Virus record (IMG/VR): IMGVR_UViG_3300042502_001732
Location: 79,933 to 143,932 of that record
Strand: one strand, 5' to 3'
Source: a virus
Length of the DNA stretch: 64,000 bases
Every line of letters begins with the position of its first letter. Positions within the stretch are counted from its first letter, which is position 1. The notes below the pieces were generated by a model. That model saw only the letters and a program-made list of their open reading frames with translations, did not search any database and was not told where the DNA came from. Positions 2,032 through 59,271 of the stretch are shown here, piece after piece. A program made the position numbers and the translations under genes.

Positions 2032-4095
2032 ATGCGCAAAGATTTTTCAGAATTGTCATTTTTATATGAAAATGTTCTTATAAATGAAATATCTCAAAAA
2101 TATGTGGATGTTATAAAAAAAGCTGCCAATGACCATGTGTTACCATTTGAAAATGTTTTTAACAATAAGTTGAGGATTATACTTCCCATCAAGGGAACTG
2201 AAACATACAATGCTATTTTAAATGATATTTCAAAAATAAAAGATTTTGATCGTTTCGATCCAGAAAAAAAAGAGGTCGTTAGAAAAATAAAACTCGATCC
2301 AAAATATGGCGGGGGAGAGAAAGAACAAAAAATAAACTTGGGAAGAGCGATCAATTCTTTAAAAATTGATCCAGAAACAAAAAAGAAATATTTAAATTGG
2401 TTTGCCAATTACGAATCCAACATACCAGAAATGAATGATCTTAAAAGATTTTCTGTGGTTGTTTCAAGAAGTCCAATTGATGTGTTGAGAATGTCTGATA
2501 TCAGCGATATAGAATCATGTCATAGTCAAGGCGGTGCGTATTTTCAATGTGCGATTCAAGAAGCTATAACAGGCGGGGCTGTGGCTTATGTTGTACACAC
2601 CAGAGATCTTAAAAAATTATCAGACGATGAGTTTCAAAATGAAGAAATATTCGAAGACAAAGAAAGAAACGTCAAAGGAATCGGCGTATGGTCTAGATTA
2701 AGAATAAGAAGATACGAAATAGAAGAAAACAACAATGATATCGGGATTCCAGAAGTCAGAATCTATGGTCGAAAAATACCAGGATTTTATGACACTGTGA
2801 AAAACTTTTTAACAAAATCTCAACAATACAGCGTTGATAATCTTTATAAATTATATAAAAATAAACAACTTAAAAAAACTGGTGGCTCTTATTCAGATTC
2901 CAGCGATAGTCAATTATTCAATAGAATGTACGACACTGATGTTTTTTATGGAAGCATTCGTCACGAAGACAATGATGAAAATGCGGGTAGAGAAGCGCAA
3001 TTCGAAGAAGAATTAGCAGGATTTCAAAACCGTTTCGAGTTTGAACATTGTAATGCGGGTTATAGTATTGATGGAGATGATGATTATGTTTATTATACAG
3101 CGTGGGGAGCAATCAATATAGATCTTGGAGAATATCAAGTGATTGATGATTTTGTAGAATTTGACAGCGAGTATGAGATAAGCCAATTAAAAAAATACAA
3201 CAAAGATTCTCAACACCAATGGGAAAGATCACTGCCATATAATTTTAAAAACAGAAACCAAGAATCCTCAATAAACACTTATAAAAATTTCCTAACAGAT
3301 TTTGAACAATACGATAGCACATCTTTCGTAGAAGACTCGTTGGCTTCGATAAGCATAAAAAGAAATTACAATGAAAAAACGGGAAATTGGGAAAAAAATC
3401 ATTCATCAATGTCGCTGGGAATATTATTCAACAACGAAGAAAGCACAGACGACACTGACGAGTATCTCTCTTTCTTGAGAGAGGTTGACAACATAGATGG
3501 AAACTACGAATCAATCAAAAAAGCATTATTAAAAGCTTTATTGAAAAACGGTTTGATAAAATCAGGACCAGATATGGAAAAATATACCACCATATCAAAA
3601 GAAAAAGAATTTGTAGAAGATATAAAGAACTTTGAATTTGATACGTCAGAAGACGCATTAACAACTGATATATTTTTGGGAAGATACACAGAGCTATCAA
3701 AAGATGTTGCTTACGCAAACATCAGCATGATATTTGGAGAAGCACTTGAAAAATATCTAGACACGTATTACAAATCACCGCAAATCAATACACAGCAAAC
3801 CACATTTGATAAGTTTTTTGAAAACCACTACAACGAAACGCTTGTTAATAAGTATGGAATAGAAAATATCAAATGCAGATACACCACCCAAGCATTCAAC
3901 ACCGAATTATACAACATGAGTTTGGAAATAAAATTCGAAGCATTGAACAGCAAAACCGCGCCAATTATCAAATTCCTAAATGATCACTATGATGATATAA
4001 CCAACATAGCCAAAATGTTTTTCTTAAAACTCGCCAAAATAGAAAACCAGGACACCAAAAGATTACAACAGGTGTATGGTAAGTTATTACAATAA
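2032..4095 (+). CDS. Large hypothetical protein with D-x3-L-x2-LY leader
   Basis: 687-aa ORF; leader MRKDFSELSFLYENVLINE shared with neighbouring genes. Confidence 0.75.
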   Translation: MRKDFSELSFLYENVLINEISQKYVDVIKKAANDHVLPFENVFNNKLRIILPIKGTETYNAILNDISKIKDFDRFDPEKKEVVRKIKLDPKYGGGEKEQKINLGRAINSLKIDPETKKKYLNWFANYESNIPEMNDLKRFSVVVSRSPIDVLRMSDISDIESCHSQGGAYFQCAIQEAITGGAVAYVVHTRDLKKLSDDEFQNEEIFEDKERNVKGIGVWSRLRIRRYEIEENNNDIGIPEVRIYGRKIPGFYDTVKNFLTKSQQYSVDNLYKLYKNKQLKKTGGSYSDSSDSQLFNRMYDTDVFYGSIRHEDNDENAGREAQFEEELAGFQNRFEFEHCNAGYSIDGDDDYVYYTAWGAINIDLGEYQVIDDFVEFDSEYEISQLKKYNKDSQHQWERSLPYNFKNRNQESSINTYKNFLTDFEQYDSTSFVEDSLASISIKRNYNEKTGNWEKNHSSMSLGILFNNEESTDDTDEYLSFLREVDNIDGNYESIKKALLKALLKNGLIKSGPDMEKYTTISKEKEFVEDIKNFEFDTSEDALTTDIFLGRYTELSKDVAYANISMIFGEALEKYLDTYYKSPQINTQQTTFDKFFENHYNETLVNKYGIENIKCRYTTQAFNTELYNMSLEIKFEALNSKTAPIIKFLNDHYDDITNIAKMFFLKLAKIENQDTKRLQQVYGKLLQ

Positions 4096-7065: not shown

Positions 7066-7266
7066 TTACTGGTGGCCAGAGTAGTTTACTGGTTCGTCAG
7101 AGTCAACCTTGACGCACCAGCACTTCTTGGCTGTTTTCTTCTGGTAGTCAGTCCATGGCTTTGGGCCAAAGGCAGCTTCCCAAGCTGCCTTTTCTGTTGG
7201 GCCATCGCCCAGATTGCAATGTCGAAGGCAATTGATGCCCGATTGTCCTTTGATGATGTATTTCAT
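7066..7266 (-). CDS. Small hypothetical protein
   Basis: 66 aa, motif A upstream. Confidence 0.6.
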   Translation of the reverse strand: MKYIIKGQSGINCLRHCNLGDGPTEKAAWEAAFGPKPWTDYQKKTAKKCWCVKVDSDEPVNYSGHQ

Positions 7267-47892: not shown

Positions 47893-48454
47893 ATCTTTCG
47901 TTTCTATTTTTCCAAATTTGTGCTGCCTTGTAGATTAATGCAGAGATGTTGCTTGATTCTTTATAACCAGAACTTTCTCCTCCGTCAAAATATCCATCAA
48001 GCGCAAATAAGAAATCTTCCATTTCATCTTCATCCAGATTGCGCACTGCTCCCATTGCCTTTTTAGCAAGTGGAAATTTAGCGGTGTAATATTCCTGTAG
48101 TGTCTCACCTTTATCTTCAACACCTTCATTATAACCATACTTTTCACCGGTCTTTAATCCGCTTGCTGCTCTTGCTGCGTCATAGAGGTGATCACTTATT
48201 TTTTTAATGACGCCTCTTGGATTGCCTTTGTGATCACGTGATGATGCATATTTTGTCATCTCGTCCATATGATCTGCAAATGCAAGTAAAAATTCTTGCA
48301 TTTGACTTCTATTTAAATTGTCAATTTCTGCTAATAGGCGTTTTATAATTGCGCTCTGTGCTTCTTGAAGACACCCGTCTGAGGTCTTGCCCTCCAGAAT
48401 CGTTGCTGCAGCACTCACAAGAGAGTCATTTTTATAGTTGTCAAAGGGTTGCAT
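47885..48454 (-). CDS. Leader-family protein with two helical repeat modules
   Basis: NDSLVSAAATIL...LQE; TATAAATA at 48462-48469. Confidence 0.75.
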   Translation of the reverse strand: MQPFDNYKNDSLVSAAATILEGKTSDGCLQEAQSAIIKRLLAEIDNLNRSQMQEFLLAFADHMDEMTKYASSRDHKGNPRGVIKKISDHLYDAARAASGLKTGEKYGYNEGVEDKGETLQEYYTAKFPLAKKAMGAVRNLDEDEMEDFLFALDGYFDGGESSGYKESSNISALIYKAAQIWKNRNERYA

Positions 48455-48508
48455 ATAAGACTATTTATACAATTTCATAATTCGAAAAATGTATAAATAA
48501 GATAGATT

Positions 48509-48967
48509 ATGAATAATTTCACATCATACAAAGAAGACCCATTGGTTTCTGCCGCTGCACATGTGTTGTCTCAAGAACAATTAAGCGAAGGCATTGTAAC
48601 CTTTCCGAGCTATCGTGCCAAAGGCAAAGGCATCTACATTGGAAAAGATCTCATAAGCAAAGACGATTTTGGTTCATTTGTCGATACTGTAAACAGACAA
48701 GTAGACAAGTTTCCACTCTTTGGAAAATATCTTGAAGTTCACTCTGGCTCTGACAGCATTCGCGGAGAGTGTGTTGGCTATGCTCATATTCATGGCGCGC
48801 CAATGCTGCTCATTCGCGACAGCAACTATAAAGAAGTATGGATTGATGCAGATCGTGCTCAACGTGAGATTTATGCATTTACTCCAGCTAAAAAGGATGT
48901 CACTACAACCGGCACCGGATCAAGTGATAATCCAATGCTTTACAGCTTTGGCAAGACTAACTATTAA
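48509..48967 (+). CDS. Leader-family protein
   Basis: EDPLVSAAAHVL...LSE; TATAAATA at 48492-48499. Confidence 0.75.
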   Translation: MNNFTSYKEDPLVSAAAHVLSQEQLSEGIVTFPSYRAKGKGIYIGKDLISKDDFGSFVDTVNRQVDKFPLFGKYLEVHSGSDSIRGECVGYAHIHGAPMLLIRDSNYKEVWIDADRAQREIYAFTPAKKDVTTTGTGSSDNPMLYSFGKTNY

Positions 48968-48969
48968 GT

Positions 48970-49053
48970 TGGTGGGCAAGGAGGGACTTGAACCCTCACG
49001 CATCACTGCACGGGCTTCTAAAACCCGCGTGGCTACCATTACACCACTTGCCC
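48970..49053 (-). tRNA. tRNA-Leu(UAG)
   Basis: CGGGT-TT-TAG-AA-GCCCG, long V-arm, CCA. Confidence 0.9.
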
Positions 49054-49057
49054 AAAT

Positions 49058-49094
49058 AAAAAACGGAGCCAACATAGAGAAGGCTCCGTTTTTG
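49058..49094. terminator. Bidirectional terminator
   Basis: AAAAACGGAGCC...GGCTCCGTTTTT. Confidence 0.8.
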
Positions 49095-49112
49095 TTTTAT
49101 ATTCTTATAATA

Positions 49113-49853
49113 TTAGAATGTCTTCTTAAACTCAATTCCACCGAAGAAAAGATTCTTCATGTCTGAATGCACACCAACCGAGTCATCAAGACCAAGTGAG
49201 TATGAGACAAACGGAACAGCGGTCACGCCTTGCACAACTGGAATGTCAGTCGACACAGTGGTCTCAAAGTGAGTACACTGTCCTTCTTGAGCGAGATAGC
49301 CAAGCTCAGCGCGAAAGTCAAGCATCAATGAAGATCCAAAATCATCACTGTATGTTGCAGCAAGTTCGCTATAGCTGTTATTGTCACCAACAAGTCCGAC
49401 ATACTGAGTAAGCGAAAGATCGATTGGACCAACTGCACGTGATACAGTCAAGCCAGCTTCTTGCGATTGTCCTTCCTGTCCTGCATAGTCTTGCGAATAC
49501 CAGGTATAGCTCAAAGATACGAGATAGTCAGCAACACTCTTAGAAAAGATTGCAGAGAGCTCAGTAGCTTCGTCCTTCCCAGTTGTTTCAGCGTTTGCAT
49601 AGTCAGCGCTAAGTGCCAACGAAACGTCCGCAGGAAGTTCAGTTGTCGTTTTGACGATTGCATTTGCTTCATTTGCACCTAGATCAGCACCACGCCAAAC
49701 CTTATCAGAAGAGTAGCCAGTTTCAAGCGTCACCGGCGTGAATGCTGAAGGAGCGTCTTCGATTGGGCCTGCATAGGCATAGTTAAGAGCAGCAAGTGCT
49801 GCAATAAGTCCGACTTTAACGATTTGTGTTTGTTTTTTCATATTATAGTTCAT
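49113..49853 (-). CDS. Outer-membrane beta-barrel protein, copy 2
   Basis: Signal peptide; ETGYSS..VWRGADLG; FFGGIEFKKTF; paralog of 1193-1930. Confidence 0.7.
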   Translation of the reverse strand: MNYNMKKQTQIVKVGLIAALAALNYAYAGPIEDAPSAFTPVTLETGYSSDKVWRGADLGANEANAIVKTTTELPADVSLALSADYANAETTGKDEATELSAIFSKSVADYLVSLSYTWYSQDYAGQEGQSQEAGLTVSRAVGPIDLSLTQYVGLVGDNNSYSELAATYSDDFGSSLMLDFRAELGYLAQEGQCTHFETTVSTDIPVVQGVTAVPFVSYSLGLDDSVGVHSDMKNLFFGGIEFKKTF

Positions 49854-49874
49854 TTTGTTTTTCAGGGGGAGAAG

Positions 49875-49949
49875 TGGTGGGGAGTGAGGGATTCAAACCC
49901 CCGGCCGACTCGGTGTAAACGAGATGCTCTATCGCTGAGCTAACTCCCC
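49875..49949 (-). tRNA. tRNA-Val(UAC)
   Basis: CTCG-TT-TAC-AC-CGAG; slightly atypical D- and T-loops. Confidence 0.85.
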
Positions 49950-49969
49950 ATAAAAGTATCTATATGTGT

Positions 49970-50059
49970 TGGCGGAACGTGTAGGATTTGAACCTACGGT
50001 AGAGTTGCCCCTACATTTCCTTAGCAGGGAAACACTTTCGACCACTCAGTCAACGTTCC
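49970..50059 (-). tRNA. tRNA-Ser(GCU)
   Basis: TTTCC-CT-GCT-AA-GGAAA, long V-arm, G73. Confidence 0.92.
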
Positions 50060-50063
50060 AAAA

Positions 50064-50154
50064 TGGCGGGTAGAGTAGGATTCGAACCCACGGAGGCGAT
50101 TAAACCTCTCTCGATTTCAAGTCGAGCGCCTTAGACCAACTCAGCCATCTACCC
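50064..50154 (-). tRNA. tRNA-Ser(UGA)
   Basis: CTCGA-CT-TGA-AA-TCGAG, long V-arm. Confidence 0.92.
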
Positions 50155-50160
50155 TAAAAT

Positions 50161-50958
50161 TTATAAGCCGTCAGACAGGTCATAGATGCGATTTGAAACA
50201 TCAACTGACTTGTCTTTCATGAGTGTTTTGGAAAGTGTGCTGTTGTATGACAGCAGCAGTGCAATTGCAAGTGGATCAAACACAGCAATGATTATGCATA
50301 TAAAGGCCATTACGATTGTATCGAGCGGCAGATTAAACTGATCGGCAATAAACTTAAACGTTCCAATGTCTTTTGATGCCGACATCTTGAGTTTTAGCTC
50401 TTGTATTTGTGTGTCAAGCTCTCTCTTGCTGTCTTGCAGTTGAACTATTCTCTCGCGCTGTGCTTGCATTTCAGCCGCTGTTCTTTCAATATCGGCATAG
50501 ATTGGTCGTGCATTTGCCGCAGACATCTTTGGCAAGCGTTCTTCTTGTGACCGCCGCGCAGCGTTTAGTGTCTCTATTCGTGAGTTGATTTGTGAGACTT
50601 CAGAGTCGATGCCGCTCTTACGTTCTTGAAGAGACCCAACCTGGGAGTCGATGTTAGAAAATTGTATTGAGTTTACAGCATAGGCAGACGATAGATAACC
50701 AAAAATACCGAGTGAAGTTATACACATGAGTACGAGTGTCGCAGTGACGAGATAGCCCTTTAAGAGCGCTGATGTGTATGCCCAATAGTGATGCAAATAG
50801 GTCGTCGCTACAAGTTTGCCAATCTCTAGTGCACTTGCCATGATGAGCACTGAAACATAGCTACCACTAAAGAGTGTAGCAATGCCAAGTACTGAAAACC
50901 ATGCGGCACATCCAGCCACAAGTAGACTAGTAATGAATAGCAGTGCACGTAAAACCAT
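50161..50958 (-). CDS. Membrane/coiled-coil phage protein
   Basis: Three N-terminal TMs (MASALEIGKLV), coiled coil, C-terminal TM with FDPLA. Confidence 0.75.
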   Translation of the reverse strand: MVLRALLFITSLLVAGCAAWFSVLGIATLFSGSYVSVLIMASALEIGKLVATTYLHHYWAYTSALLKGYLVTATLVLMCITSLGIFGYLSSAYAVNSIQFSNIDSQVGSLQERKSGIDSEVSQINSRIETLNAARRSQEERLPKMSAANARPIYADIERTAAEMQAQRERIVQLQDSKRELDTQIQELKLKMSASKDIGTFKFIADQFNLPLDTIVMAFICIIIAVFDPLAIALLLSYNSTLSKTLMKDKSVDVSNRIYDLSDGL

Positions 50959-50974
50959 GTCATGATATTTATAA

Positions 50975-50994
50975 TGGTGGGCCCGGTTGGGTTC
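50975..50994 (-). pseudogene. 3' remnant of a disrupted tRNA
   Basis: GAAC-CCAAC-CGGGCCC-A-CCA; acceptor strand pairs with the 5' half at 51636-51668. Confidence 0.75.
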
Positions 50995-51004
50995 TTATTA
51001 AAAA

Positions 51005-51080
51005 TGGTAGGCCCGCTCGGATTCGAACCGAGGGTCACCCGATTATGAGTCGGACGCTTTCACCGCTAAGCTACGAGCCT
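51005..51080 (-). tRNA. tRNA(CAU), probably Ile2
   Basis: TCCGA-CT-CAT-AA-TCGGG; AGGCTCG/CGGGCCT acceptor. Confidence 0.88.
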
Positions 51081-51090
51081 TTATAGAAAT

Positions 51091-51615
51091 TTAGTTCTTA
51101 GAAATATTTCGATTTTTTAAAGAATTTGAAATTTTTTGTTTTGTTTCTTCGCTCATCGGCTTTCTTAATTTTGCTGCTTTCGAAATATTTTGCTTTGCAG
51201 TTTCACTAAGTTTTCTACCTTTTGATGAAGAACCACCACGTTTTCCAGCATCAATAAATTTTTGTTTATTATCACTGGAATTTAAAGTTTTTTTAATTTG
51301 TGAAATAGTTTCATTTGAATGAGATTTGCCTTTAAAATGTGATCCACCTTCACCGCCGACTCCCATGTTATAAGTGTCCTTGCAATTTACAAATTCTTCA
51401 GTAATCAATTCTCTTTCTTTTGCATTCATCTCCTCTTCTGTTTGGAAAATAAACAATATTTCTTTTTGAAAATTTTCCTTACCATATTTTAATATAGCTT
51501 CCTTGATTGCCTTTCCGGAACCATAATACGAATCATTTGGATTAGCAGTTTGATGTTTACCTATATAAAATTTATTATTGATTAGATTTGTAGTTTTATA
51601 GATTGTATAGAACAT
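51091..51615 (-). CDS. GIY-YIG (Seg-like) homing endonuclease with NUMOD3-like repeats
   Basis: YTIYKTTNLINNKFYIGKH, YYGSG, HSNETI/LSETAK/MSEETK; start MFYTIY after TATAAATA at 51621. Confidence 0.88.
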   Translation of the reverse strand: MFYTIYKTTNLINNKFYIGKHQTANPNDSYYGSGKAIKEAILKYGKENFQKEILFIFQTEEEMNAKERELITEEFVNCKDTYNMGVGGEGGSHFKGKSHSNETISQIKKTLNSSDNKQKFIDAGKRGGSSSKGRKLSETAKQNISKAAKLRKPMSEETKQKISNSLKNRNISKN

Positions 51616-51635
51616 AATTCTATTTATACAATCAT

Positions 51636-51668
51636 AGACCCCTGCTCTTACCGCTGAGCTACAAGCCC
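51636..51668 (-). pseudogene. 5' half of a tRNA (positions 1-33)
   Basis: GGGCTTG-TA-GCTC-AGCGGTAA-GAGC-A-GGGGT-CT, then break. Confidence 0.85.
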
Positions 51669-51873
51669 CTTTCATTATAAAACTGGTCCGTTTTCTTTTT
51701 GTTCGTGATCTATGTATTGCCCAATATGTTGATGAACATTCAGCGATCGACGAAATGATTCATGCTCAAGTTTGGCTATTCGCTCTCTAAGTTCATTCAT
51801 CTCAGAGAGTAGCGCTTCTACTTCGGCGTCAATCAAACTTTTAATATGTTCTGTATTCATAATCTTTTAAAGA

Positions 51874-51958
51874 TGGTAGCTATGGTCGGACTCGAACCGA
51901 CAAGCCATAAGGCAACGAATTTTAAGTTCGCAATGTTTACCAATTTCATCACACAGCC
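51874..51958 (-). tRNA. tRNA-Leu(UAA)
   Basis: GCGAA-CT-TAA-AA-TTCGT, V-arm, CCA. Confidence 0.9.
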
Positions 51959-52047
51959 ATAGAAAATTTAGAGGTTGTCGACGAGATAATTGTTCGACTT
52001 TAGGGACCTCATGCTCCTGTAAGCGATACCACCACAGTACCGAAATT

Positions 52048-52680
52048 TTATTTATTAGAGATATTATAATTCTTACATGATTCTAAAGAATTTAGAATAA
52101 CAATATTGTCATATTGATTTAACAAACATTTTAATTTTTCATTTTGAACTTTAATTGCTTGGGGATTTTTTGGATCTAGATATAGATTATATTCTGGAAG
52201 ATAAAAATCTGGAAAATAATTATGTGTTATACCATCTTTATCAATCCATGGCAATGGACTTGGTCTAAGCCAAGTAATATTACATTCATCTAAACGTTTA
52301 GCGAGTTCTAATTCCCATGAAGAATCTAACATTATTCCATTATATTCAATAATTCCTCTTCTTAATCTTCTATGAGGTGAAGAAAGCGCCTTTTCTTTCA
52401 TCAATTGTTTAGATTTTTCAGTATGTTTTCTTCCTTTCCAATAGTTATTATTAATTAACGGCGAAACTATTTGCTTTCCCTCAGATTTTGCTTTATCATA
52501 TTGATTAGTAATTCCAGATTCTTTTTTCGCTAAATTCATAGCAGCAACAGCCTTTAATGAACCATTTTTATATTCAGTTCTTTTTGGGTTTTCTTTACAC
52601 CATCTACTATGGTTTGCCATCCATCCACTTGGTTTATCGCACAAATCAAATTCTTCTTTACAGTGTTTACATTTATTCAT
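52048..52680 (-). CDS. PD-(D/E)xK-type putative homing endonuclease
   Basis: N-terminal CKHC..H..WC; HTEKSK; DSSWE...YFPDFYLPEYNLYLDPK. Confidence 0.8.
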   Translation of the reverse strand: MNKCKHCKEEFDLCDKPSGWMANHSRWCKENPKRTEYKNGSLKAVAAMNLAKKESGITNQYDKAKSEGKQIVSPLINNNYWKGRKHTEKSKQLMKEKALSSPHRRLRRGIIEYNGIMLDSSWELELAKRLDECNITWLRPSPLPWIDKDGITHNYFPDFYLPEYNLYLDPKNPQAIKVQNEKLKCLLNQYDNIVILNSLESCKNYNISNK

Positions 52681-52696
52681 AATAGTGTTTTTAAAT

Positions 52697-52771
52697 TGGT
52701 GGGTATACTAGGATTCGAACCTAGGCGAAGGATTTAGAAGACCCTGATGCTATCCATTACATTATATACCC
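52697..52771 (-). tRNA. tRNA-Arg(UCU)
   Basis: AGGGT-CT-TCT-AA-ATCCT; D-loop GGATA. Confidence 0.88.
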
Positions 52772-52792
52772 ATACACTATTATTTATAAATT

Positions 52793-52827
52793 AAATCCCT
52801 TGCTCTAATCCACTGAGCTACGTTCCC
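52793..52827 (-). pseudogene. 5' half of an Arg-type tRNA truncated in the anticodon
   Basis: GGGAACG-TA-GCTC-AGTGGATTA-GAGC-A-AGGGA-TT-T, then TATAAATA at 52781-52788. Confidence 0.82.
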
Positions 52828-53513
52828 GTTTTTCATATTTAATTAAAGTCAAAGGTGTCTACTGTAATGTCATGTTGCTTAAGAAGACGAACCGCGTTGT
52901 CACGTTTACGTTTGCTGTTCCAGAAAAGCTCAATCTCTGCAGCATCGGCATCGTTATAGGTGTGAATGTCGCTTAACGCCATTGCTTCCATATAGCATTC
53001 ATCATTGTGAAATACAATCGAATATTGTTTTGTTTTCATGCGGTCTTAGTCGATGTCCTGTTTCATATTGTATTGGAGTTTCTCAAAAGATCAGACTTCA
53101 GCATTGACCTCACATTCATTTATAACATAATCATCATACGCAGTATTTTCATAACGATTGTTGACACGATCAGCATCAACCTTAGCCTTATAGGCATCTA
53201 GTGCGCAATTTGCTTTTTTAAGTGAGCTATAAGCTCCTAATACGACGTCGCCTTCATAGTCTACGCGTCCTAATAAGAGAAATATTGAAGATTTGTTTTT
53301 CATATTGTGGTTGGTGTTGCTTACATGGTTATTATAGCATAAAACGCACAGAAAGTACACAACTTTTTTCATAAAAGTGAAAAAAGATCCCGAAGTTAAG
53401 CCTGGTATAGAGAAAATTTGCCCATGACAGATTGCTGCTACACTCACCCAGGGCTGGGGCTATCTAGAAACCACATCTAGCTGCGTCATACTTTATCGCG
53501 TATGAATACGAAT

Positions 53514-53582
53514 TACGAGGGGGAGGAATTTAACCTCCACTCTAGACTATGGGCCTAGCGATCTCCGTATGATCCCTCTCGC
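53514..53582 (-). tRNA. Degenerate tRNA-like element with CAU loop
   Basis: CTAGG-CC-CAT-AG-TCTAG; GGAGG-TTAAATT-CCTCC; imperfect acceptor; no CCA. Confidence 0.45.
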
Positions 53583-53882
53583 AAAGTGTTTTCCCCACTA
53601 CCGAATAATTGACCAGAGTCAACTTGAAGAAACGCAGTGACTATTTCATCTTGGTGGCTAATTCCAAGACTAGTTTAATGTGCGTCGGATTACATTCGGC
53701 GTCACCGGGTTGCCATCCCGTTCTTAGCCTCAATGCTCATTGTAGGATCAATGCCTACAATGGCAGGGAAAAATGGTGGGGTATTCTCGTATCATGTTTA
53801 AACCATGCGCTGTCTAGTGTGCACCCATCAAGCGTAGAGGGCATGAGGAGAATAAAGCCGCTAAGCTCTGCCCCATTGAAAT

Positions 53883-53956
53883 TGGTGCGTCATGTGAGGG
53901 TCGAACTCACGCCTTCAGAGTGGAAGTCTAATGTGCTGCCGTAACACTTATGACGC
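53883..53956 (-). tRNA. tRNA-Gly(UCC)
   Basis: TTAGA-CT-TCC-AC-TCTGA. Confidence 0.88.
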
Positions 53957-53962
53957 AAAAAA

Positions 53963-54065
53963 TAGACAATGTAGATGGAATCGAACCATCGCCTCGGCGT
54001 TGTCGCCTATCCTATCGGACAAGAAACCCTTTGCTTGGGGCGTGCTACCACTACACTATACATTG
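53963..54065 (-). ncRNA. tRNA-like RNA with expanded anticodon/variable region
   Basis: Perfect CAATGTA/TACATTG acceptor, normal D- and T-arms, about 50-nt centre. Confidence 0.6.
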
Positions 54066-54071
54066 AAAGAC

Positions 54072-54497
54072 TTAACGTTTGATCAGGTCAGACACAGCAC
54101 GTGTCATTTTACCAATGTCAGCCATTGTTGGAAAGACACTGTTCGGGCTGTCGCCACCTCTAATTGAGAGGATTGGCTTGTGTGTGCCGGTTTTGGCGAG
54201 TGCCATATTGCCGCGAATATAGTCATCAGCACCCATCTTGCCCATGCTCATAGTGAGCGTATACTCTTGTCCACCAATCTCAAACGAGACACCAGTATAG
54301 CCAGAGTCGAAAAATTTGGCGTGTGTGATTGACCCACGGGGCGTGTCGGCAGAATTTAAAATTGTTTGCAGATAATCTTGAACGCTTTCTGGAACAGACC
54401 GTCCAAAGCCAGTGACTGGTGCAATAGCGACCTTTTCGAGAATTTGCTTTGCAGCTTCAACTAGACTGTCTGGTTGTGTAGAATTAAATGCGTTCAT
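54072..54497 (-). CDS. Leader-family protein
   Basis: QPDSLVEAAKQILE; TATAAATA at 54503-54510. Confidence 0.7.
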   Translation of the reverse strand: MNAFNSTQPDSLVEAAKQILEKVAIAPVTGFGRSVPESVQDYLQTILNSADTPRGSITHAKFFDSGYTGVSFEIGGQEYTLTMSMGKMGADDYIRGNMALAKTGTHKPILSIRGGDSPNSVFPTMADIGKMTRAVSDLIKR

Positions 54498-54514
54498 ACT
54501 ACTATTTATAAAAA

Positions 54515-54600
54515 TGGTGGGCAGAGCTGGATTCGAACCAGCGTAGGCGTTAGCCAGCAGATTTACAGTCTGCCCCCTTTAGCCACTCGGGCATCTACCC
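54515..54600 (-). tRNA. tRNA-Tyr(GUA)
   Basis: GCAGA-CT-GTA-AA-TCTGC, V-arm. Confidence 0.92.
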
Positions 54601-54708
54601 ATTTAGCAATGTATGGTTATTGACCCACACGGAATCTAGTATTTTATATACTAAGTTAAAACTGTTTTTGTATCTCTATTCTTTACCCCTTAAAAGGCAA
54701 AAATATAT

Positions 54709-55077
54709 CTACCAAATAGAACCAGGTTTAGAGTTGGGTCTATTTTTATCCCAAAAATGCTTACCAGCAGCAGTTTGATCTGAGCTACGATATATTTTAT
54801 AACCACGTTTCGATAAAATATCATAAACCATTTTTGCTAGTCCCTTACCTCTGTGCTCTTTAGATACCCAAATATCTATAGCTTTTAAATTTTTATTATC
54901 GTGTTTAAATGTAAATGTACCGATTTTTATTCTATCATCAATAAGATATACATATATCTCATCCAAGTAACTATCGATATCTATTTTAATATCATGGGTT
55001 ATTTTTTTACTAAAAATTGATTTGAGTTTATCAATAAAACTTTCTCGTATAAAATACTGTTTAAATGATATAATCAT
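54709..55077 (-). CDS. GNAT-family acetyltransferase with SFKQY leader
   Basis: VSKEHRGKGLA acetyl-CoA loop; QTAAGKHFW; MIISFKQYFIRE. Confidence 0.7.
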   Translation of the reverse strand: MIISFKQYFIRESFIDKLKSIFSKKITHDIKIDIDSYLDEIYVYLIDDRIKIGTFTFKHDNKNLKAIDIWVSKEHRGKGLAKMVYDILSKRGYKIYRSSDQTAAGKHFWDKNRPNSKPGSIW

Positions 55078-55236
55078 AATACTATTTATGCGAAAGTGAT
55101 GAGCTTTTATTCTTGTGCCATGCTCAGGGCTTAACAGGTGTTGTTGCTACATCAAAGGAGTTATGCTTGTTTAGCGTTCTAAAGTCACATCCTATGAAAC
55201 GCAATTGCCGCTATGCGAACCGCCCATTAAAAAAAT

Positions 55237-55316
55237 TGGTTGCGGGGGTGGGAGTCGAACCCACACCGAAGCCTAGCTTATGAGACTAGTTCAGCACCAC
55301 TACTGACTGCCCCGCG
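55237..55316 (-). tRNA. tRNA-Met(CAU), initiator-like
   Basis: C1-A72 mismatch (CGCGGGG/CCCCGCA); CTAGT-CT-CAT-AA-GCTAG. Confidence 0.8.
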
Positions 55317-55328
55317 ATTGAAAATTGA

Positions 55329-55439
55329 GCCGTCTAGAGAGGCGACATAGACACATTCCCGTACGCACCCGCATATGCAGTCCTGCACGTCATTTGTGTC
55401 TATGTACCGGGCATGGAGCCCGTGCACCTCTCTAGCGGC
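55329..55439 (-). ncRNA. Structured ncRNA of about 110 nt between tRNAs
   Basis: Stems GCCG.CTAGAGAGG/CCTCTCTAG.CGGC, ACATAGACACA/TGTGTCTATGT, CGGGC/GCCCG. Confidence 0.6.
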
Positions 55440-55444
55440 AAAGT

Positions 55445-55519
55445 TGGTAGAGGTACAAGGATTCGAACCTCGACAAACAGAATCAAAATCTGTGGTGCTA
55501 ACCGTTACACTATACCTCT
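55445..55519 (-). tRNA. tRNA-Gln(UUG)
   Basis: ACAGA-TT-TTG-AT-TCTGT. Confidence 0.9.
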
Positions 55520-55520
55520 A

Positions 55521-55594
55521 TGGCACGTCACCACAGATTCGAACTGTGACAAAAGGTTTTGGAGACCTTTGTGCTACCGTTACACCAATGACGT
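55521..55594 (-). tRNA. tRNA-Trp(CCA)
   Basis: AAGGT-CT-CCA-AA-ACCTT. Confidence 0.9.
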
Positions 55595-55598
55595 ATAA

Positions 55599-55674
<76 letters not shown>

Positions 55675-55684
55675 TAATAAAAAA

Positions 55685-55759
55685 TGGTCGGGTAATTGAG
55701 AATCGAACTCAACTAAACTTGCTCCCAAAGCAAGCGCCTCGCCAGTCGGCCTTTACCCG
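55685..55759 (-). tRNA. tRNA-Pro(UGG)
   Basis: CTTGC-TT-TGG-GA-GCAAG. Confidence 0.88.
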
Positions 55760-55767
55760 TAAAAATA

Positions 55768-55845
55768 TGGTACACCCAGTTAGACTCGAACTAACGACCC
55801 CACAATTATCAATCGTGTGCTCTAACCAAACTGAGCTATGGATGC
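55768..55845 (-). tRNA. tRNA-Ile(GAU)
   Basis: CACGA-TT-GAT-AA-TTGTG. Confidence 0.9.
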
Positions 55846-55854
55846 ACTTTAAAC

Positions 55855-55941
55855 TGGAGCCGAAAGTGGGATTCGAACCCACGATGATGTTTCCAAACCG
55901 GATTACAAATCCGGTGCAATCGACCACTATGCGACTTCGGC
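55855..55941 (-). tRNA. tRNA-Thr(UGU) with 15-nt variable region
   Basis: CCGGA-TT-TGT-AA-TCCGG; V = TTTGGAAACATCATC. Confidence 0.85.
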
Positions 55942-56631
55942 GTGATTGTATAAATCAATAAATTTTTTAAAAAGATTGCTATTGTATGCTATACCAACAG
56001 AATTAAATGCTCTACTTAAACATTTATGTTTTTCATATTCTAATTTTAGATTATCAAAGTTGTCTTTAATGATATTTGGTTTCGAATTATTCTCACATTG
56101 TTTGCAACAATATTTTTTCTTTTTCTTATTTGAAAATGTTGAATTGCAAGCTGCGCATGTAAAATGTTTTTGTTTCTTTTTTACAGTTCTTCCAAATTTC
56201 CATTCTTCGGAAACAATATAATCTTTAGAAACTTTCAAATTAACAATACCATTTGTTATCCATTTTGTATCATACTGACTATTGCATTCTCCCTTTGAAG
56301 TAATTTTAAATCGATGAGATGCATATTTAATAAATTCTTTACGTGCCCATTCATACATACGACCACTTTTAATGCATGGTCGATCACACGTTTTTGAAGA
56401 TTTCATTTGCATTGCCCAAAGAGCATATGCAGTTTGGCTGCATCGATTAAATTTTGAAAGAAGCAAATGCGCAATATAATGTTCACGACCAGATAGTGCT
56501 ACAATGTTTGATTCATCATCAGTGCCTCCCAATGATTTTGGGACTATATGATGACGTTCAATATAGCCACACGTTAAGATATTTTGACGCCTATATTCTA
56601 TTAGGCGATTATATATCTGTTTGTAATCCAT
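55927..56631 (-). CDS. HNH (Mob-like) homing endonuclease
   Basis: ERHHIVPKSLGGTDDESNIV.L..REHYIAH; TKWITNG; TATAAATA at 56637-56644; stop lies inside tRNA-Thr. Confidence 0.88.
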   Translation of the reverse strand: MDYKQIYNRLIEYRRQNILTCGYIERHHIVPKSLGGTDDESNIVALSGREHYIAHLLLSKFNRCSQTAYALWAMQMKSSKTCDRPCIKSGRMYEWARKEFIKYASHRFKITSKGECNSQYDTKWITNGIVNLKVSKDYIVSEEWKFGRTVKKKQKHFTCAACNSTFSNKKKKKYCCKQCENNSKPNIIKDNFDNLKLEYEKHKCLSRAFNSVGIAYNSNLFKKFIDLYNHAEVA

Positions 56632-56683
56632 AAGTTTATTTATACAAAACGAACATTTAACTTACAAATTACAATAAAAAAAT

Positions 56684-56758
56684 TGGCTCCGACTCGTGGG
56701 ATCGAACCACGGACCCGATGATTAACAGTCATCTGCTCTGCCGCTGAGCTAAGTCGGA
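56684..56758 (-). tRNA. tRNA-Asn(GUU)
   Basis: GATGA-CT-GTT-AA-TCATC. Confidence 0.92.
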
Positions 56759-57384
56759 TTGTGAAATTATTTATAGTGAGGAATTTTAGAGACAAACTCC
56801 TCAAAATTTTCCGTATCAATGTCTATATATTCTTCATTGAGAGTAAGACGACCCCTGTGCCAGGCATTCCATTCTAGATCTTCTTGCAGCGTCTCTGATG
56901 TATGAATCTTTACTAGACTGTTTTCTCCAGAAATGTCGCATGCAGACAAGGCGTCTTCGTACTGTTCATGCCAATCAAGACCACCGCATTCAGAATCTTC
57001 GCTCACGAGTTCAACGAGTTCTTCGTCAGAGAGACCTGCATATTCATCATAGAGTTCTCTCAACTTTTCAGTGTCAACGCTAAATAACTTTCCAGTGTGT
57101 ACAGTTTCAGTCGTCCATTTTTCGATGTATATTTTCATAGTATTATTCGTCAAGTGAATTTAACCAACGCTTCTCACGTACGCGTTGGGCATGAGTAGAC
57201 CACATGCGACCTAGCGTGAATCCTAGAGCATGCATTTCAAAATAGTTTTGAAAGCGTGAATGATCGCGAGTGACTCTAAACTTGTGTTCACCGCTCTTAA
57301 GCGGTAGTTTTACTGAAAGGTAAAATTGACCGACCTTGATGTATGTTGAGGTGCGAATGACTATTTTCATTGTATATTATTTAT

Positions 57385-57459
57385 TGGTACTCACACGGGG
57401 AATCGAACCCCGATTGTACGGATGAAAACCGTAAGTCCTAACCGTTAGACGATATGAGC
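57385..57459 (-). tRNA. tRNA-Glu(UUC)
   Basis: TACGG-TT-TTC-AT-CCGTA. Confidence 0.9.
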
Positions 57460-57471
57460 AGGTGTTGTAGA

Positions 57472-57545
57472 TGGACGCACGTTCCAGTAACGCTCTGGAC
57501 TAGGCGGTTTTGCAGACCACTGCATAACTTCTCTGCCAACGTGCG
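57472..57545 (-). tRNA. tRNA-Cys(GCA), atypical T-loop
   Basis: GTGGT-CT-GCA-AA-ACCGC; U73; T-loop AGCGTTA. Confidence 0.8.
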
Positions 57546-57549
57546 AAAG

Positions 57550-57645
57550 TGGTACTAGAGGTGGGACTCGAACCCACATACGGCTCGATGACCGATTCTA
57601 CCCCCTTATAAAGAAGGACCTTTAACCAATTCAGGACACTCTAGC
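57550..57645 (-). tRNA. tRNA(UAU), Ile anticodon, with 23-nt variable arm
   Basis: GCTAGAG/CTCTAGT-A-CCA; CCTTC-TT-TAT-AA-GGGGG; V = TAGAATCGGTCATCGAGCCGTAT. Confidence 0.8.
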
Positions 57646-58341
57646 ATTAAAAATTTGTTCTTGAATTTTATCCCATGTAAGCATTGTTTTATCGAGAATT
57701 AAAACTCGTATTGAATGGGTCTGTTCAACAATTTTAATTTTTTCGCAATCACTAAACCCCATAGATGGATTAATGTTATTGATAAGAAAATCATTTTTAG
57801 GATCTAGATATACATCAAAATCTGGCAGATAAAAATCTGGTGTATATTGTCTACTTTTATTGAATGGATCGATATAATCGAATTTTTTTGGCTTTATCCA
57901 TCTTATGGAATTACTATCTAAAGATTTTGCAACACATACTTCATAAGAAGAACCAAATTTATGTCCATTATATTCGCATTTAGTATTAACAAATTTACCA
58001 CCAAGACCACGACGTTTAGCATGATCTGACATATTTTTTCTTAATTCTGAAGTGCTCCTAGCTTTAGCTGATGCAGACATCTTTTGTCGCGTTTCATTAG
58101 AAACTTCCACTGCAATTGGTTTTGGCAAATTTAATTTAATTGCTTTAGTATACTGATTTGTTCCATTTCCTTTGCGGGCATTCATAGATTCCATCCAACG
58201 AATAGTTTTACCATTTGGTAGTTTTTCACTTGGAGGTAATTTATCTTTTATTTTTCCATTTTCACATGCCCTTGCATGTCTAGAATAGGCAAATTTTGAA
58301 ATTTCTCTATTACATACTGGGCACAAGGAATGGTCATTCAT
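57631..58341 (-). CDS. PD-(D/E)xK-type putative homing endonuclease
   Basis: CPVC..H..AC; SNETRQKMS; GSSYE...YTPDFYLPDFDVYLDPK; TATAAATA at 58347-58354; stop lies inside the tRNA. Confidence 0.8.
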   Translation of the reverse strand: MNDHSLCPVCNREISKFAYSRHARACENGKIKDKLPPSEKLPNGKTIRWMESMNARKGNGTNQYTKAIKLNLPKPIAVEVSNETRQKMSASAKARSTSELRKNMSDHAKRRGLGGKFVNTKCEYNGHKFGSSYEVCVAKSLDSNSIRWIKPKKFDYIDPFNKSRQYTPDFYLPDFDVYLDPKNDFLINNINPSMGFSDCEKIKIVEQTHSIRVLILDKTMLTWDKIQEQIFNARVS

Positions 58342-58363
58342 ATAGTTATTTATAAAAATGAGC

Positions 58364-58396
58364 AAAGAATCCGCTCTACCACTGAGCTACAGGAGG
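58364..58396 (-). pseudogene. 5' half of a tRNA truncated in the anticodon
   Basis: CCTCCTG-TA-GCTC-AGTGGTA-GAGC-G-GATTC-TT-T. Confidence 0.82.
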
Positions 58397-58674
58397 GAAA
58401 AATTTATCGGTTAATCATATTGGCATGTCGATGAGGAGCGCAATGCGCTGCAACTACAATCGACTATGACTTTTTATAGGGACCGAAAACTCCTATATAC
58501 AAACCTTTGACATCGCATCACTGAGTGATCCAAGCCGTACAACCACGGACGTTCTCAACTTTCAGTAGCAGTTGATGTGGCATTTAGTTATGAAACTTTT
58601 GTTTCTTGTTGCTTACAGAGACATTATACACTAAACTCTCTCATATGTAAACATCTTTTTTATCTATAAGTGAT

Positions 58675-59271
58675 TTATTTATATTGTAAAAAATCCTTCC
58701 ATTCATCGCGAATCGTAACTTTTTCACTAAGCGCGCTAAACTCGATGTCTTTTAGCATCTTAGGTTTTACCTCTGAGCCATGAATGTTGAAATATGGAAA
58801 CTTGTTTGATTTTTTGGTATTGCACTTTTTGCAAGACAGAACGATATTGTCGTCGTTGTTGCCGCCTCCACGACTGCGAGGAATGAGATGATCACGAGTC
58901 GCAGAAGTGTATGGAATTTTCTTTAAGCAATATTGACATTCTCCTCCATAGATATAATACAGCTGACGAAGGTTGATTGCGCGCGGCTGCTTTTTGCCTT
59001 GCTTGTAGTGACCAAAATAGCCTGGCACCACTACAATTGTAGGAATTGCCCACAATGTGTCGACGCTTCTCAGCGCAGGATTGTTTGGACTGAGATGATC
59101 ATCGTTTGCTATCCAGCTGCTCCAGTCTCGTATGTTTCCATACTGGTCATAGGCTTTTACGCCTCCAACCATCATGTTTCGAATTGCAGACCGAGCAGAA
59201 AAAAATCCACATGGTTGAAAGCCTGCAGTCAATACGAGTGTAGTCTTATGAGAGGGAAAAACTGGAATCAT
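58675..59271 (-). CDS. HNH endonuclease (McrA-like)
   Basis: TLVLTAGFQP; CQYC..TRDHLIPRSRGG..NIVLSCKKCNTKK. Confidence 0.85.
   Translation of the reverse strand: MIPVFPSHKTTLVLTAGFQPCGFFSARSAIRNMMVGGVKAYDQYGNIRDWSSWIANDDHLSPNNPALRSVDTLWAIPTIVVVPGYFGHYKQGKKQPRAINLRQLYYIYGGECQYCLKKIPYTSATRDHLIPRSRGGGNNDDNIVLSCKKCNTKKSNKFPYFNIHGSEVKPKMLKDIEFSALSEKVTIRDEWKDFLQYK

Follow-up and report, generated by a model that had tools for sequence, protein, structure and literature searches.

What has become of a tRNA gene whose two ends lie 641 nt apart, with a homing endonuclease gene and a second, complete tRNA gene between them? This question is raised by a locus in a viral DNA stretch of 64,000 nucleotides (nt), hereafter the window, which forms the last 64 kilobases (kb) of the 143.9-kb IMG/VR viral contig IMGVR_UViG_3300042502_001732 (33.6% G+C; 21 transfer RNA, or tRNA, genes in the contig; a T4 Gp23-type capsid gene in the phage genome). 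We consider it highly likely, taking the statement as a whole, that a mobile homing-endonuclease cassette inserted into a resident Ile2-like tRNA(CAU) gene, replacing positions 34–56 of that gene, and that it moves by nuclease-driven homing. The structural part of this statement, a cassette inserted into a single tRNA gene with both scars left behind, is judged from sequence to be almost certain; that the homing is driven by the nuclease itself is, by analogy with known systems, fairly probable. The locus, hereafter cassette 1, is read on the minus strand and comprises the following features; codes of the form L008 denote related loci.

51675–51860, minus strand: open reading frame (ORF) of 61 amino acids (aa), the upstream synteny anchor; in L003, L006, L008, and L009, tRNA-Leu(UAA) and tRNA-A are separated by a homologous small ORF.
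51636–51668, minus strand: 5′ remnant of the resident tRNA(CAU) gene (tRNA-A), positions 1–33, up to U33 of the anticodon loop; 33/33 identical to L008:4907–4939.
50995–51635, minus strand: inserted cassette of 641 bp (leader with TATAAATA, endonuclease gene, cargo tRNA(CAU), and 10-nt tail); colinear with L017:~2985–3700 and not at this site in L002–L009.
51621–51628, minus strand: TATAAATA box, the consensus of T4 late promoters; the nuclease ATG follows 5 nt downstream.
51091–51615, minus strand: GIY-YIG and NUMOD3 homing endonuclease gene, SegB-like, 174 aa; ATG at 51615, stop at 51091.
51005–51080, minus strand: cargo tRNA(CAU) (tRNA-B), complete cloverleaf with encoded CCA (ARAGORN; Rfam tRNA, 69.3 bits).
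50995–51004, minus strand: 10-nt cassette tail TTTTTAATAA, separating the cargo tRNA from the 3′ remnant; its equivalent in L017 is TTTTATATA.
50975–50994, minus strand: 3′ remnant of tRNA-A, positions 57–76, GAACCCAAC-CGGGCCC-A-CCA; 20/20 identical to L008:4963–4982 and to L007.
50966–50973, minus strand: TATAAATA box of the downstream 265-aa gene, resident and outside the insert, abutting the CCA end of the old tRNA; a box abutting the tRNA 3′ end is also found in L006, L007, L008, and L009.
50161–50958, minus strand: gene for a 265-aa coiled-coil/membrane protein, the downstream synteny anchor; homologues 99% (L002–L006) and 69–70% (L007, L008) identical lie directly after the tRNA(CAU) site.

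Read from 51668, the 5′ remnant consists of the acceptor strand GGGCTTG, the D-arm (GCTC/GAGC), the anticodon-stem strand GGGGT, and C32 and U33 (51636); the 3′ remnant consists of the second half of the T-loop, the T-stem strand CCAAC, the acceptor strand CGGGCCC, the discriminator A, and CCA. Neither ARAGORN nor Rfam calls a tRNA from these pieces, which do not form a complete cloverleaf, and Rfam in E-value mode did not return the 33-nt and 20-nt remnants as partial tRNAs. Relatives of the locus were retrieved via the downstream 265-aa gene and via a 26-nt word of the 5′ piece, and both remnants were queried with blastn-short against 411 distinct tRNAs taken from the loci analysed. The best match to the 5′ remnant was L008:4907–4982 (33/33 at positions 1–33; expectation value, E, 3.7e-12). 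The 3′ remnant matched the same gene at 20/20 over positions 57–76 (E 2e-4), tied with a second tRNA copy at L007:72–147. L008:4907–4982 is an intact tRNA(CAU) (Rfam, 68 bits) that lies between homologues of the 61-aa ORF and of the TATAAATA box with its 265-aa gene (69% identical), that is, at the syntenic position of the window's split gene. A chance origin of the remnants is rejected, as the 33/33 and 20/20 matches fall on one tRNA among 411. Absent from the locus are the 23 nt of tRNA-A positions 34–56, a stretch that begins with the anticodon, takes in the variable region, and ends midway through the T-loop. The two remnants are pseudogene fragments of a resident tRNA-A gene that is, judged from sequence, dead. 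In L007, where the full tRNA(CAU) gene copy at 72–147 lies elsewhere in the contig, the tRNA(CAU) site itself (L007:4905–4983) holds a chimeric pseudo-tRNA with an Ile(GAU)-type 5′ part, a tRNA(CAU) 3′ part, and unpaired acceptor strands.

These results agree with a preliminary description of the stretch, made from its letters. All of the elements it listed (GGGCTTG, box, Seg-like gene, tRNA(CAU), and CGGGCCC-A-CCA) were recovered at the positions it gave, with an intervening insert of 641 nt. The 7-nt acceptor pairing it proposed comprises seven pairs, two of them G.U, as in the intact L008 tRNA, and the middle of the old tRNA, which it held to be missing, corresponds exactly to positions 34–56. 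Its proposal of an insertion into a tRNA gene was borne out by the BLASTN comparison of the two halves that it had suggested: rather than pointing to different tRNA genes, both halves match L008:4907–4982, an intact, Ile2-like tRNA(CAU) within the tRNA set from these loci. The intact tRNA-A gene is 87% identical over 69 nt to an E. coli tRNA with a CAT anticodon, annotated as tRNA-Ile and located beside mug and rpoD, and is on this basis classed as putatively Ile2-like; the ATA codon is common in the window's phage (30 per 1000). As 23 nt including the anticodon are gone from the locus, and as no group I intron signal is present there (Rfam Intron_gpI gave no match in window positions 48000–59000 at E up to 10), neither splicing nor trans-joining can rebuild tRNA-A.

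The insertion is reproduced in independent data. Of the words sampled from positions 50800–51900, at least half occur in each of twenty lake-water runs from 2016–2024; no RNA run was listed for the stretch. One contig from an independent run (X10) spans 50846–51739 with zero differences, and two others (X13, 50934–51573; X12, 51067–51900) each cross one junction, again with no difference; stretches uncovered by contigs in single runs were given no weight. The same lake runs also contain contigs that join 50994 directly to 51636, skipping the 641 nt, and that represent the uninterrupted form in other phages. Among relatives, L002–L006 have a flanking gene that is 99% identical and lack the cassette, which is also lacking in L009, and L008 carries the empty, intact site. 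By this pattern of presence and absence, the insertion is polymorphic among otherwise 99%-identical phages.

The alleles without the cassette are not all empty. In L002–L006 and L009, the same tRNA(CAU) is interrupted by an ORF-less group I intron of ~205 nt; intron-bearing genes of these near-identical sister phages lie at L003:4702–4983, L006:4702–4984, L009:11276–10996, and L004:26–308. The L006 intron matches the full-length Rfam Intron_gpI model at 42.3 bits (E 1e-9), below the gathering score of 50. The last bases of the 5′ exon, GACU, are able to pair with GGUC of the intron, whose own last base is G; the splice site is therefore placed at U33|C34, the same phosphodiester at which the 5′ remnant of the window ends. 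Positions 1–27 of the 5′ remnant are also identical in the intron-bearing allele. Compared with the window remnants and L008, the intron allele differs in the anticodon stem and T stem and does not differ in the acceptor stem and D-arm, a pattern such as would be expected from co-conversion around an incoming intron. An L008-type allele was thus invaded twice, independently and at one site, by an intron and by a cassette.

The predicted product of the inserted gene matches NUMOD3 (PF07460; 33.1 bits, cut-off 20.4) and SegE_GIY-YIG (26.2 bits, cut-off 25); the generic GIY-YIG profile (PF01541) scores 18.5 bits, below its cut-off of 22.6. It also matches phrog_314, annotated as “homing endonuclease” (1.8e-44), and is 57% identical to residues 1–91 of T4 SegB (E 1e-32), consistent with the earlier identification of the gene as Seg-like. 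Residues Y3, Y6, Y17-I18-G19, H21, E67, and N83 are invariant in nine family members and all are kept in the window's nuclease; mutation of Y17/G19 abolishes the activity of T6 SegB (PMC13096335). With both the GIY-YIG catalytic residues and the NUMOD3 DNA-binding region of Seg/SegB-like homing endonucleases present, the enzyme is a new member of the SegB-like GIY-YIG group. A longer frame of 194 aa (51675–51091, minus strand) opens at an ATG overlapping the stop of the 61-aa ORF and continues, in the reading frame of the nuclease, across the orphan 5′ half and the TATAAATA box. As GIY-YIG domains usually start at residue 1, this extension is probably incidental.

The window contains 16 copies of the TATAAATA box, the consensus of T4 late promoters, where 5.8 ± 2.4 would be expected; 15 of the copies are on the coding (minus) strand. 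The box ends exactly 5 nt before the ATG of a nuclease, without a Shine-Dalgarno sequence, at window positions 51628–51613 and 58354–58339, at L017:2986–3003, and at L002:6363–6380; with this spacing, a T4-type late transcript would be nearly leaderless. The box of canonical family members, in contrast, is enclosed in a hairpin leader of 60 nt.

A scan of IMG/VR for homologues of the nuclease returned 121 relatives. Those above ~40% identity lie nearly all inside phage tRNA arrays, where they typically begin 60–75 nt past one tRNA and often overlap the next with their final codons. In most family members the leader is a hairpin around a TATAAATA or CTAAATA box; a hairpin has been described over the translation start of segB, and hairpins combined with nearby promoters in I-TevI and MobE (PMC2330249). 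The idea that this constant 60–75 nt leader is itself a degenerate tRNA 5′ half was rejected, as it is mostly a promoter-box hairpin like the T4 I-TevI/seg leaders. True orphan tRNA halves are carried only by a subset of family members; the leaders of L017 and L021 resemble a decayed 5′ half and gave no significant tRNA match with blastn-short.

In the closest relatives of the nuclease, a tRNA(CAU) directly follows the gene (69% identity in L016–L019, 66% in L018, 56% in L022, and ~50% in L024–L025); this association, kept down to ~50% identity, lends support to the cassette as a unit. The insert is colinear with L017 at the DNA level, running from (ATGA)TTGTATAAATA through the nuclease gene and the tRNA end to ACCATTTT, including the TTTT after the tRNA. 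The cargo tRNA is 87% identical to the tRNA that follows the nuclease in L017 and 71% identical to tRNA-A. The promoter–nuclease–tRNA(CAU) unit of L016–L019, with which the insert is colinear, sits between other tRNAs and without the remnants seen in the window; in L017 the array is differently ordered. Because the promoter, nuclease, and tRNA(CAU) are also found as a free-standing unit in this other phage lineage, they travel together as a mobile cassette; the orphan 5′ half is part of the resident locus rather than of the cassette. A megablast search of the 9-kb tRNA region against cultured phages returned short tRNA matches only, and no relative.

The cargo tRNA itself is called by ARAGORN as tRNA(cat) and scores 69.3 bits with Rfam RF00005, against a gathering score of 29, with a complete cloverleaf. 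No other CAU tRNA of elongator type is present in the contig; the one remaining CAU tRNA (55316–55237) is initiator-like, with a C1/A72 mismatch. Comparison with annotated tRNAs gave one weak match to tRNA-Ile, and phage annotations label CAT tRNAs “Met” by default.

Several points count against an active element that replaces like with like. The cargo may be either an Ile2 or an elongator Met tRNA, so that a like-for-like replacement is a candidate only. The cargo tRNA (GGTTCGAATCC) would also keep the T-loop motif if the enzyme recognised it in the manner of SegB. Finally, the window's nuclease is without the last C-terminal NUMOD3-like module carried by L017, L018, L020, L027, and L031, and a C-terminally shortened SegB is non-toxic in E. 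coli (PMC13096335); for these reasons, the gene may be a decaying, already inactive copy, such as would be expected of a homing gene once it has spread.

Does the same arrangement occur elsewhere? The loci examined were screened with blastn-short for tRNA parts outside called tRNAs, followed by inspection. An orphan 5′ half with a promoter box, a nuclease, and a complete tRNA was found 10 times. The anticodon of the complete tRNA is that of the orphan half in 10/10 complete cases, which chance cannot explain. Every orphan half stops within the anticodon and is followed by a TATAAATA-like box, usually within ~15 nt or less and up to ~35 nt away in two cases. The nucleases belong to GIY-YIG (phrog_314), HNH-type (phrog_655, phrog_10822), and PD-(D/E)XK-like (phrog_15137, 945, 9019) families. 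The order of parts has exceptions: the tRNA comes before the nuclease in the Arg case of the window, and a tRNA-like gene comes after the ORF in the Leu case of L002. A 3′ remnant is absent from cassettes 2 and 3 of the window and from most other cases; cassette 1 is the clearest member of this recurrent pattern and one of only two cases here that keep both scars. The other cases are as follows.

52827–52048, minus strand: cassette 2, with an orphan Arg(UCU) 5′ half (52827–52793; 35/35 versus L002:2912–2946), TATAAATA (52788–52781), a complete tRNA-Arg(UCU) of another allele (52771–52697), and an endonuclease ORF (52680–52048).
58396–57550, minus strand: cassette 3, with an orphan Ile(UAU) 5′ half (58396–58364; 33/33 versus the intact L010:6414–6488), TATAAATA (58354–58347), a PD-(D/E)XK-like ORF (~58341–57631; phrog_15137), and a 96-nt tRNA-Ile(UAU) (57645–57550), which could read AUA and is overlapped by the ORF end; no 3′ remnant.
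L002:6329–7221: split tRNA-Leu(UAG) with both scars, comprising positions 1–34, ATATAAATA, a 249-aa endonuclease (phrog_945/9019), a tRNA-like gene that has a UAG loop and is not called by ARAGORN, and, starting in the T-loop, the 3′ end of the old gene (7200–7221); intact tRNA-Leu(UAG) genes lie at L006:6903–6986 and at 49053–48970 of the window.
Orphan halves in relatives: Val-UAC and Leu-UAG in L002; Gly-UCC in L008; Gly-UCC and Ile-GAU in L031; Gly-UCC in L027; Cys-GCA in L039.

A mechanism for cassette 1 can be proposed by analogy. On the model of T4 SegB, the nuclease would be made late in infection and, where a co-infecting relative has a tRNA(CAU) allele free of the cassette, would cut that allele between the anticodon and the T-loop; recombinational break repair of the T4 type would then copy the cassette into the cut allele. 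The old 5′ half with the upstream ORF, and the old 3′ end with the downstream gene, would serve as homology arms. The carrier would be spared, its occupied allele being without the target and its cargo tRNA differing in the anticodon stem and T stem. First arrival would have been from an L017-like donor via non-homologous joints on both sides; such joints are needed because the cargo and resident tRNAs are only 71% identical, and it is because they were non-homologous on both sides that both remnants would have survived. Both joints lie at the centres of hairpin loops (33/34 and 56/57), which hints at structure-directed breakage. The D-arm and T-arm are common to all tRNA genes. That three nuclease families share the anticodon breakpoint suggests, as an inference, that the anticodon stem-loop is the only part specific enough to offer a safe target among 20–30 tRNA genes.

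Other histories could leave a similar footprint. If the insert were a present or former group I intron, placed in the anticodon loop and carrying an endonuclease ORF, splicing would restore the tRNA, and the ~205-nt intron of the sister phages does lie at U33|C34 of the same tRNA, where the 5′ remnant stops. However, the would-be 3′ exon is without positions 34–56, so no splice yields a tRNA; the insert corresponds over its whole length to a free-standing cassette and contains a complete second tRNA; and the region showed no Intron_gpI signal, all of which makes an intron extremely improbable. The probability of an assembly chimera, joining the tRNA regions of two phages at a shared tRNA sequence, is practically negligible: the assembly is metagenomic and tRNA arrays are repeat-rich, but the junctions lie outside shared repeats and the independently assembled X10, X13, and X12 contigs cross both of them without a difference.

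It is also unlikely, if less so, that a nuclease-independent rearrangement among similar tRNAs of the array put the nuclease and tRNA inside tRNA-A, leaving the nuclease a passenger. The array is a recombination hot spot, as seen in the L007 chimera of an Ile-GAU 5′ part and a tRNA-A 3′ part; microhomology was used in amplification of the T6 SegB region (PMC13096335); and the C-terminal shortening of the window's nuclease would suit a passenger. Yet no tRNA–tRNA homology is found at the junctions, the left junction falls within the anticodon in every case, and the layout is seen 10 times, always with a nuclease and a same-anticodon replacement, which random recombination does not predict. Lastly, the remnants might have been retained for a function, whether a 7-bp pairing that brackets the cassette RNA for processing or selection as homology arms. 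Both are letter-perfect copies of the ends of a functional gene, and in all relatives the promoter box of the following gene directly adjoins the 3′ remnant; a recent event, however, predicts perfect identity equally well, and cassettes 2 and 3 and most other cases have no 3′ remnant. We regard such retention as very unlikely, and prefer insertion of a mobile cassette into the resident tRNA(CAU) gene.

This insertion may have wider meaning. We tentatively propose, at slightly less than even confidence, that cassette 1 is an instance of a general and convergent class of homing elements that “replace what you break,” drawn from at least three nuclease families and acting as tRNA-allele gene drives in T4-like phages. 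Under this proposal, each nuclease would target the anticodon stem-loop of one tRNA, the only isoacceptor-specific part, and would be welded to a divergent tRNA with the same anticodon; at these sites, ORF-less group I introns would be rivals of the elements. The loop-centre breakpoints, seen in two independent two-remnant cases, may result from structure-directed breakage or joining of hairpin loops during repair, and the resulting turnover of tRNA alleles could help phages to evade host anticodon nucleases.

Further observations concern neighbouring tRNA loci. Group I introns occupy the classical U34|A35 site of tRNA-Leu(UAA) in L003:4211–4496 and L008:4380–4667 (Rfam, 61.3 and 60.2 bits), and an HNH-like ORF lies directly upstream of this tRNA in L003 and L005; the tRNA-Leu(UAA) of the window (51958–51874) is intronless. 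The 5′ and 3′ parts of tRNA-Asn(GUU) are ~207 nt apart in L013:112–145 and 353–384 and in L015:9979–9707, probably the mark of another tRNA-borne group I intron in these phages. Phage transfer-messenger RNA (tmRNA) genes are found at L008:6113–6421 and L007:8422–8726 (Rfam, 129 and 120 bits), that of L008 between two tRNA-Ser genes; in the window two Ser genes are adjacent (50154–49970), with no tmRNA between them. Two Rfam tRNA matches on the minus strand of the window are not called by ARAGORN, at 54065–53966 (100 nt, 43 bits) and at 53582–53514 (69 nt, 28.6 bits, narrowly below the gathering score).

Three modes of persistence are ascribed to homing endonuclease genes: in self-splicing introns, in inteins, or in intergenic DNA beside their target. 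The locus described here suggests a further route for an RNA gene, in which the tRNA gene is destroyed by the element lodged within it and a divergent working copy comes with that element. With three alleles (empty, group I intron, and cassette) coexisting in a natural population, competition between two selfish elements at one nucleotide becomes testable. For annotation, an orphan tRNA half in a phage tRNA array is a sign of such an event, and recent import is the probable origin of the complete tRNA that follows the nuclease. A literature search for truncated tRNAs with homing endonucleases in phages found no paper describing this layout for tRNA genes or for phages. The association of SegB with tRNAs, its cutting inside tRNA genes, and its dragging of tRNA genes along are already published; those publications do not report insertion inside a tRNA gene together with a replacement copy.

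The SegB enzymes of T4 and T6 are free-standing GIY-YIG homing endonucleases encoded in a tRNA gene cluster (PMC2330249; PMC13096335); SegB cleaves tRNA genes internally and causes its tRNA region to be inherited preferentially (PMC2330249). The window's enzyme resembles SegB in its catalytic domain (57% over 91 aa), its NUMOD3 motifs, and its setting in the tRNA array of a T4-like phage. SegB homologues are statistically associated with tRNAs, and T4 segB follows tRNA-Ile(CAU); SegB carries neighbouring tRNA genes along, and in relatives of the window's nuclease the ORF runs up to or into the next tRNA. SegB, however, has intact tRNA genes on both sides and, having recognised the T-loop, cuts such genes at the 3′ end, whereas here the cassette lies inside a tRNA gene, positions 34–56 are deleted, and a substitute with the same anticodon is supplied. 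The C-terminal DNA-binding parts, moreover, can be aligned only in short motifs.

In intronless homing and marker exclusion, described for T4 SegF, SegG, and SegE, and in the collaborative homing of a free-standing nuclease with an ORF-less intron, described for F-CphI/psbA and mobE/I-TevIII (PMC2988022, PMC2790892, PMC6083498), the nuclease cuts, as proposed here, an allele that is without the nuclease gene, and repair co-converts flanking markers; sister phages of the window likewise carry an ORF-less group I intron at the very site of the cassette. In those systems the nuclease gene is intergenic and the target remains whole, being resistant or protected by an intron, whereas here the target is broken and replaced. 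Group I introns in the anticodon loop of bacterial tRNAs (PMC3984707) share with cassette 1 the placing of mobile DNA in a tRNA gene and the insertion point in the anticodon loop; the cassette differs in having no ribozyme and incomplete exons, its neutrality being achieved via a spare gene rather than by splicing.

The closest published logic is that of the mobile-ORF (mORF) endonuclease elements of fungal mitochondria, which bring a foreign C-terminus to the genes they enter (Allomyces atp6; Glomus atp6, atp9, cox2, and nad3; PMC3630166). There, too, a free-standing endonuclease gene enters an essential gene and brings a divergent replacement, and the native end persists as an unexpressed downstream remnant (PMC3630166). 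The mORF elements, however, invade mitochondrial protein genes, of which only the 3′ part is replaced, in frame; in cassette 1 a whole RNA gene is supplied and both old ends remain, in a host system and a nuclease lineage unrelated to those of the fungal elements.

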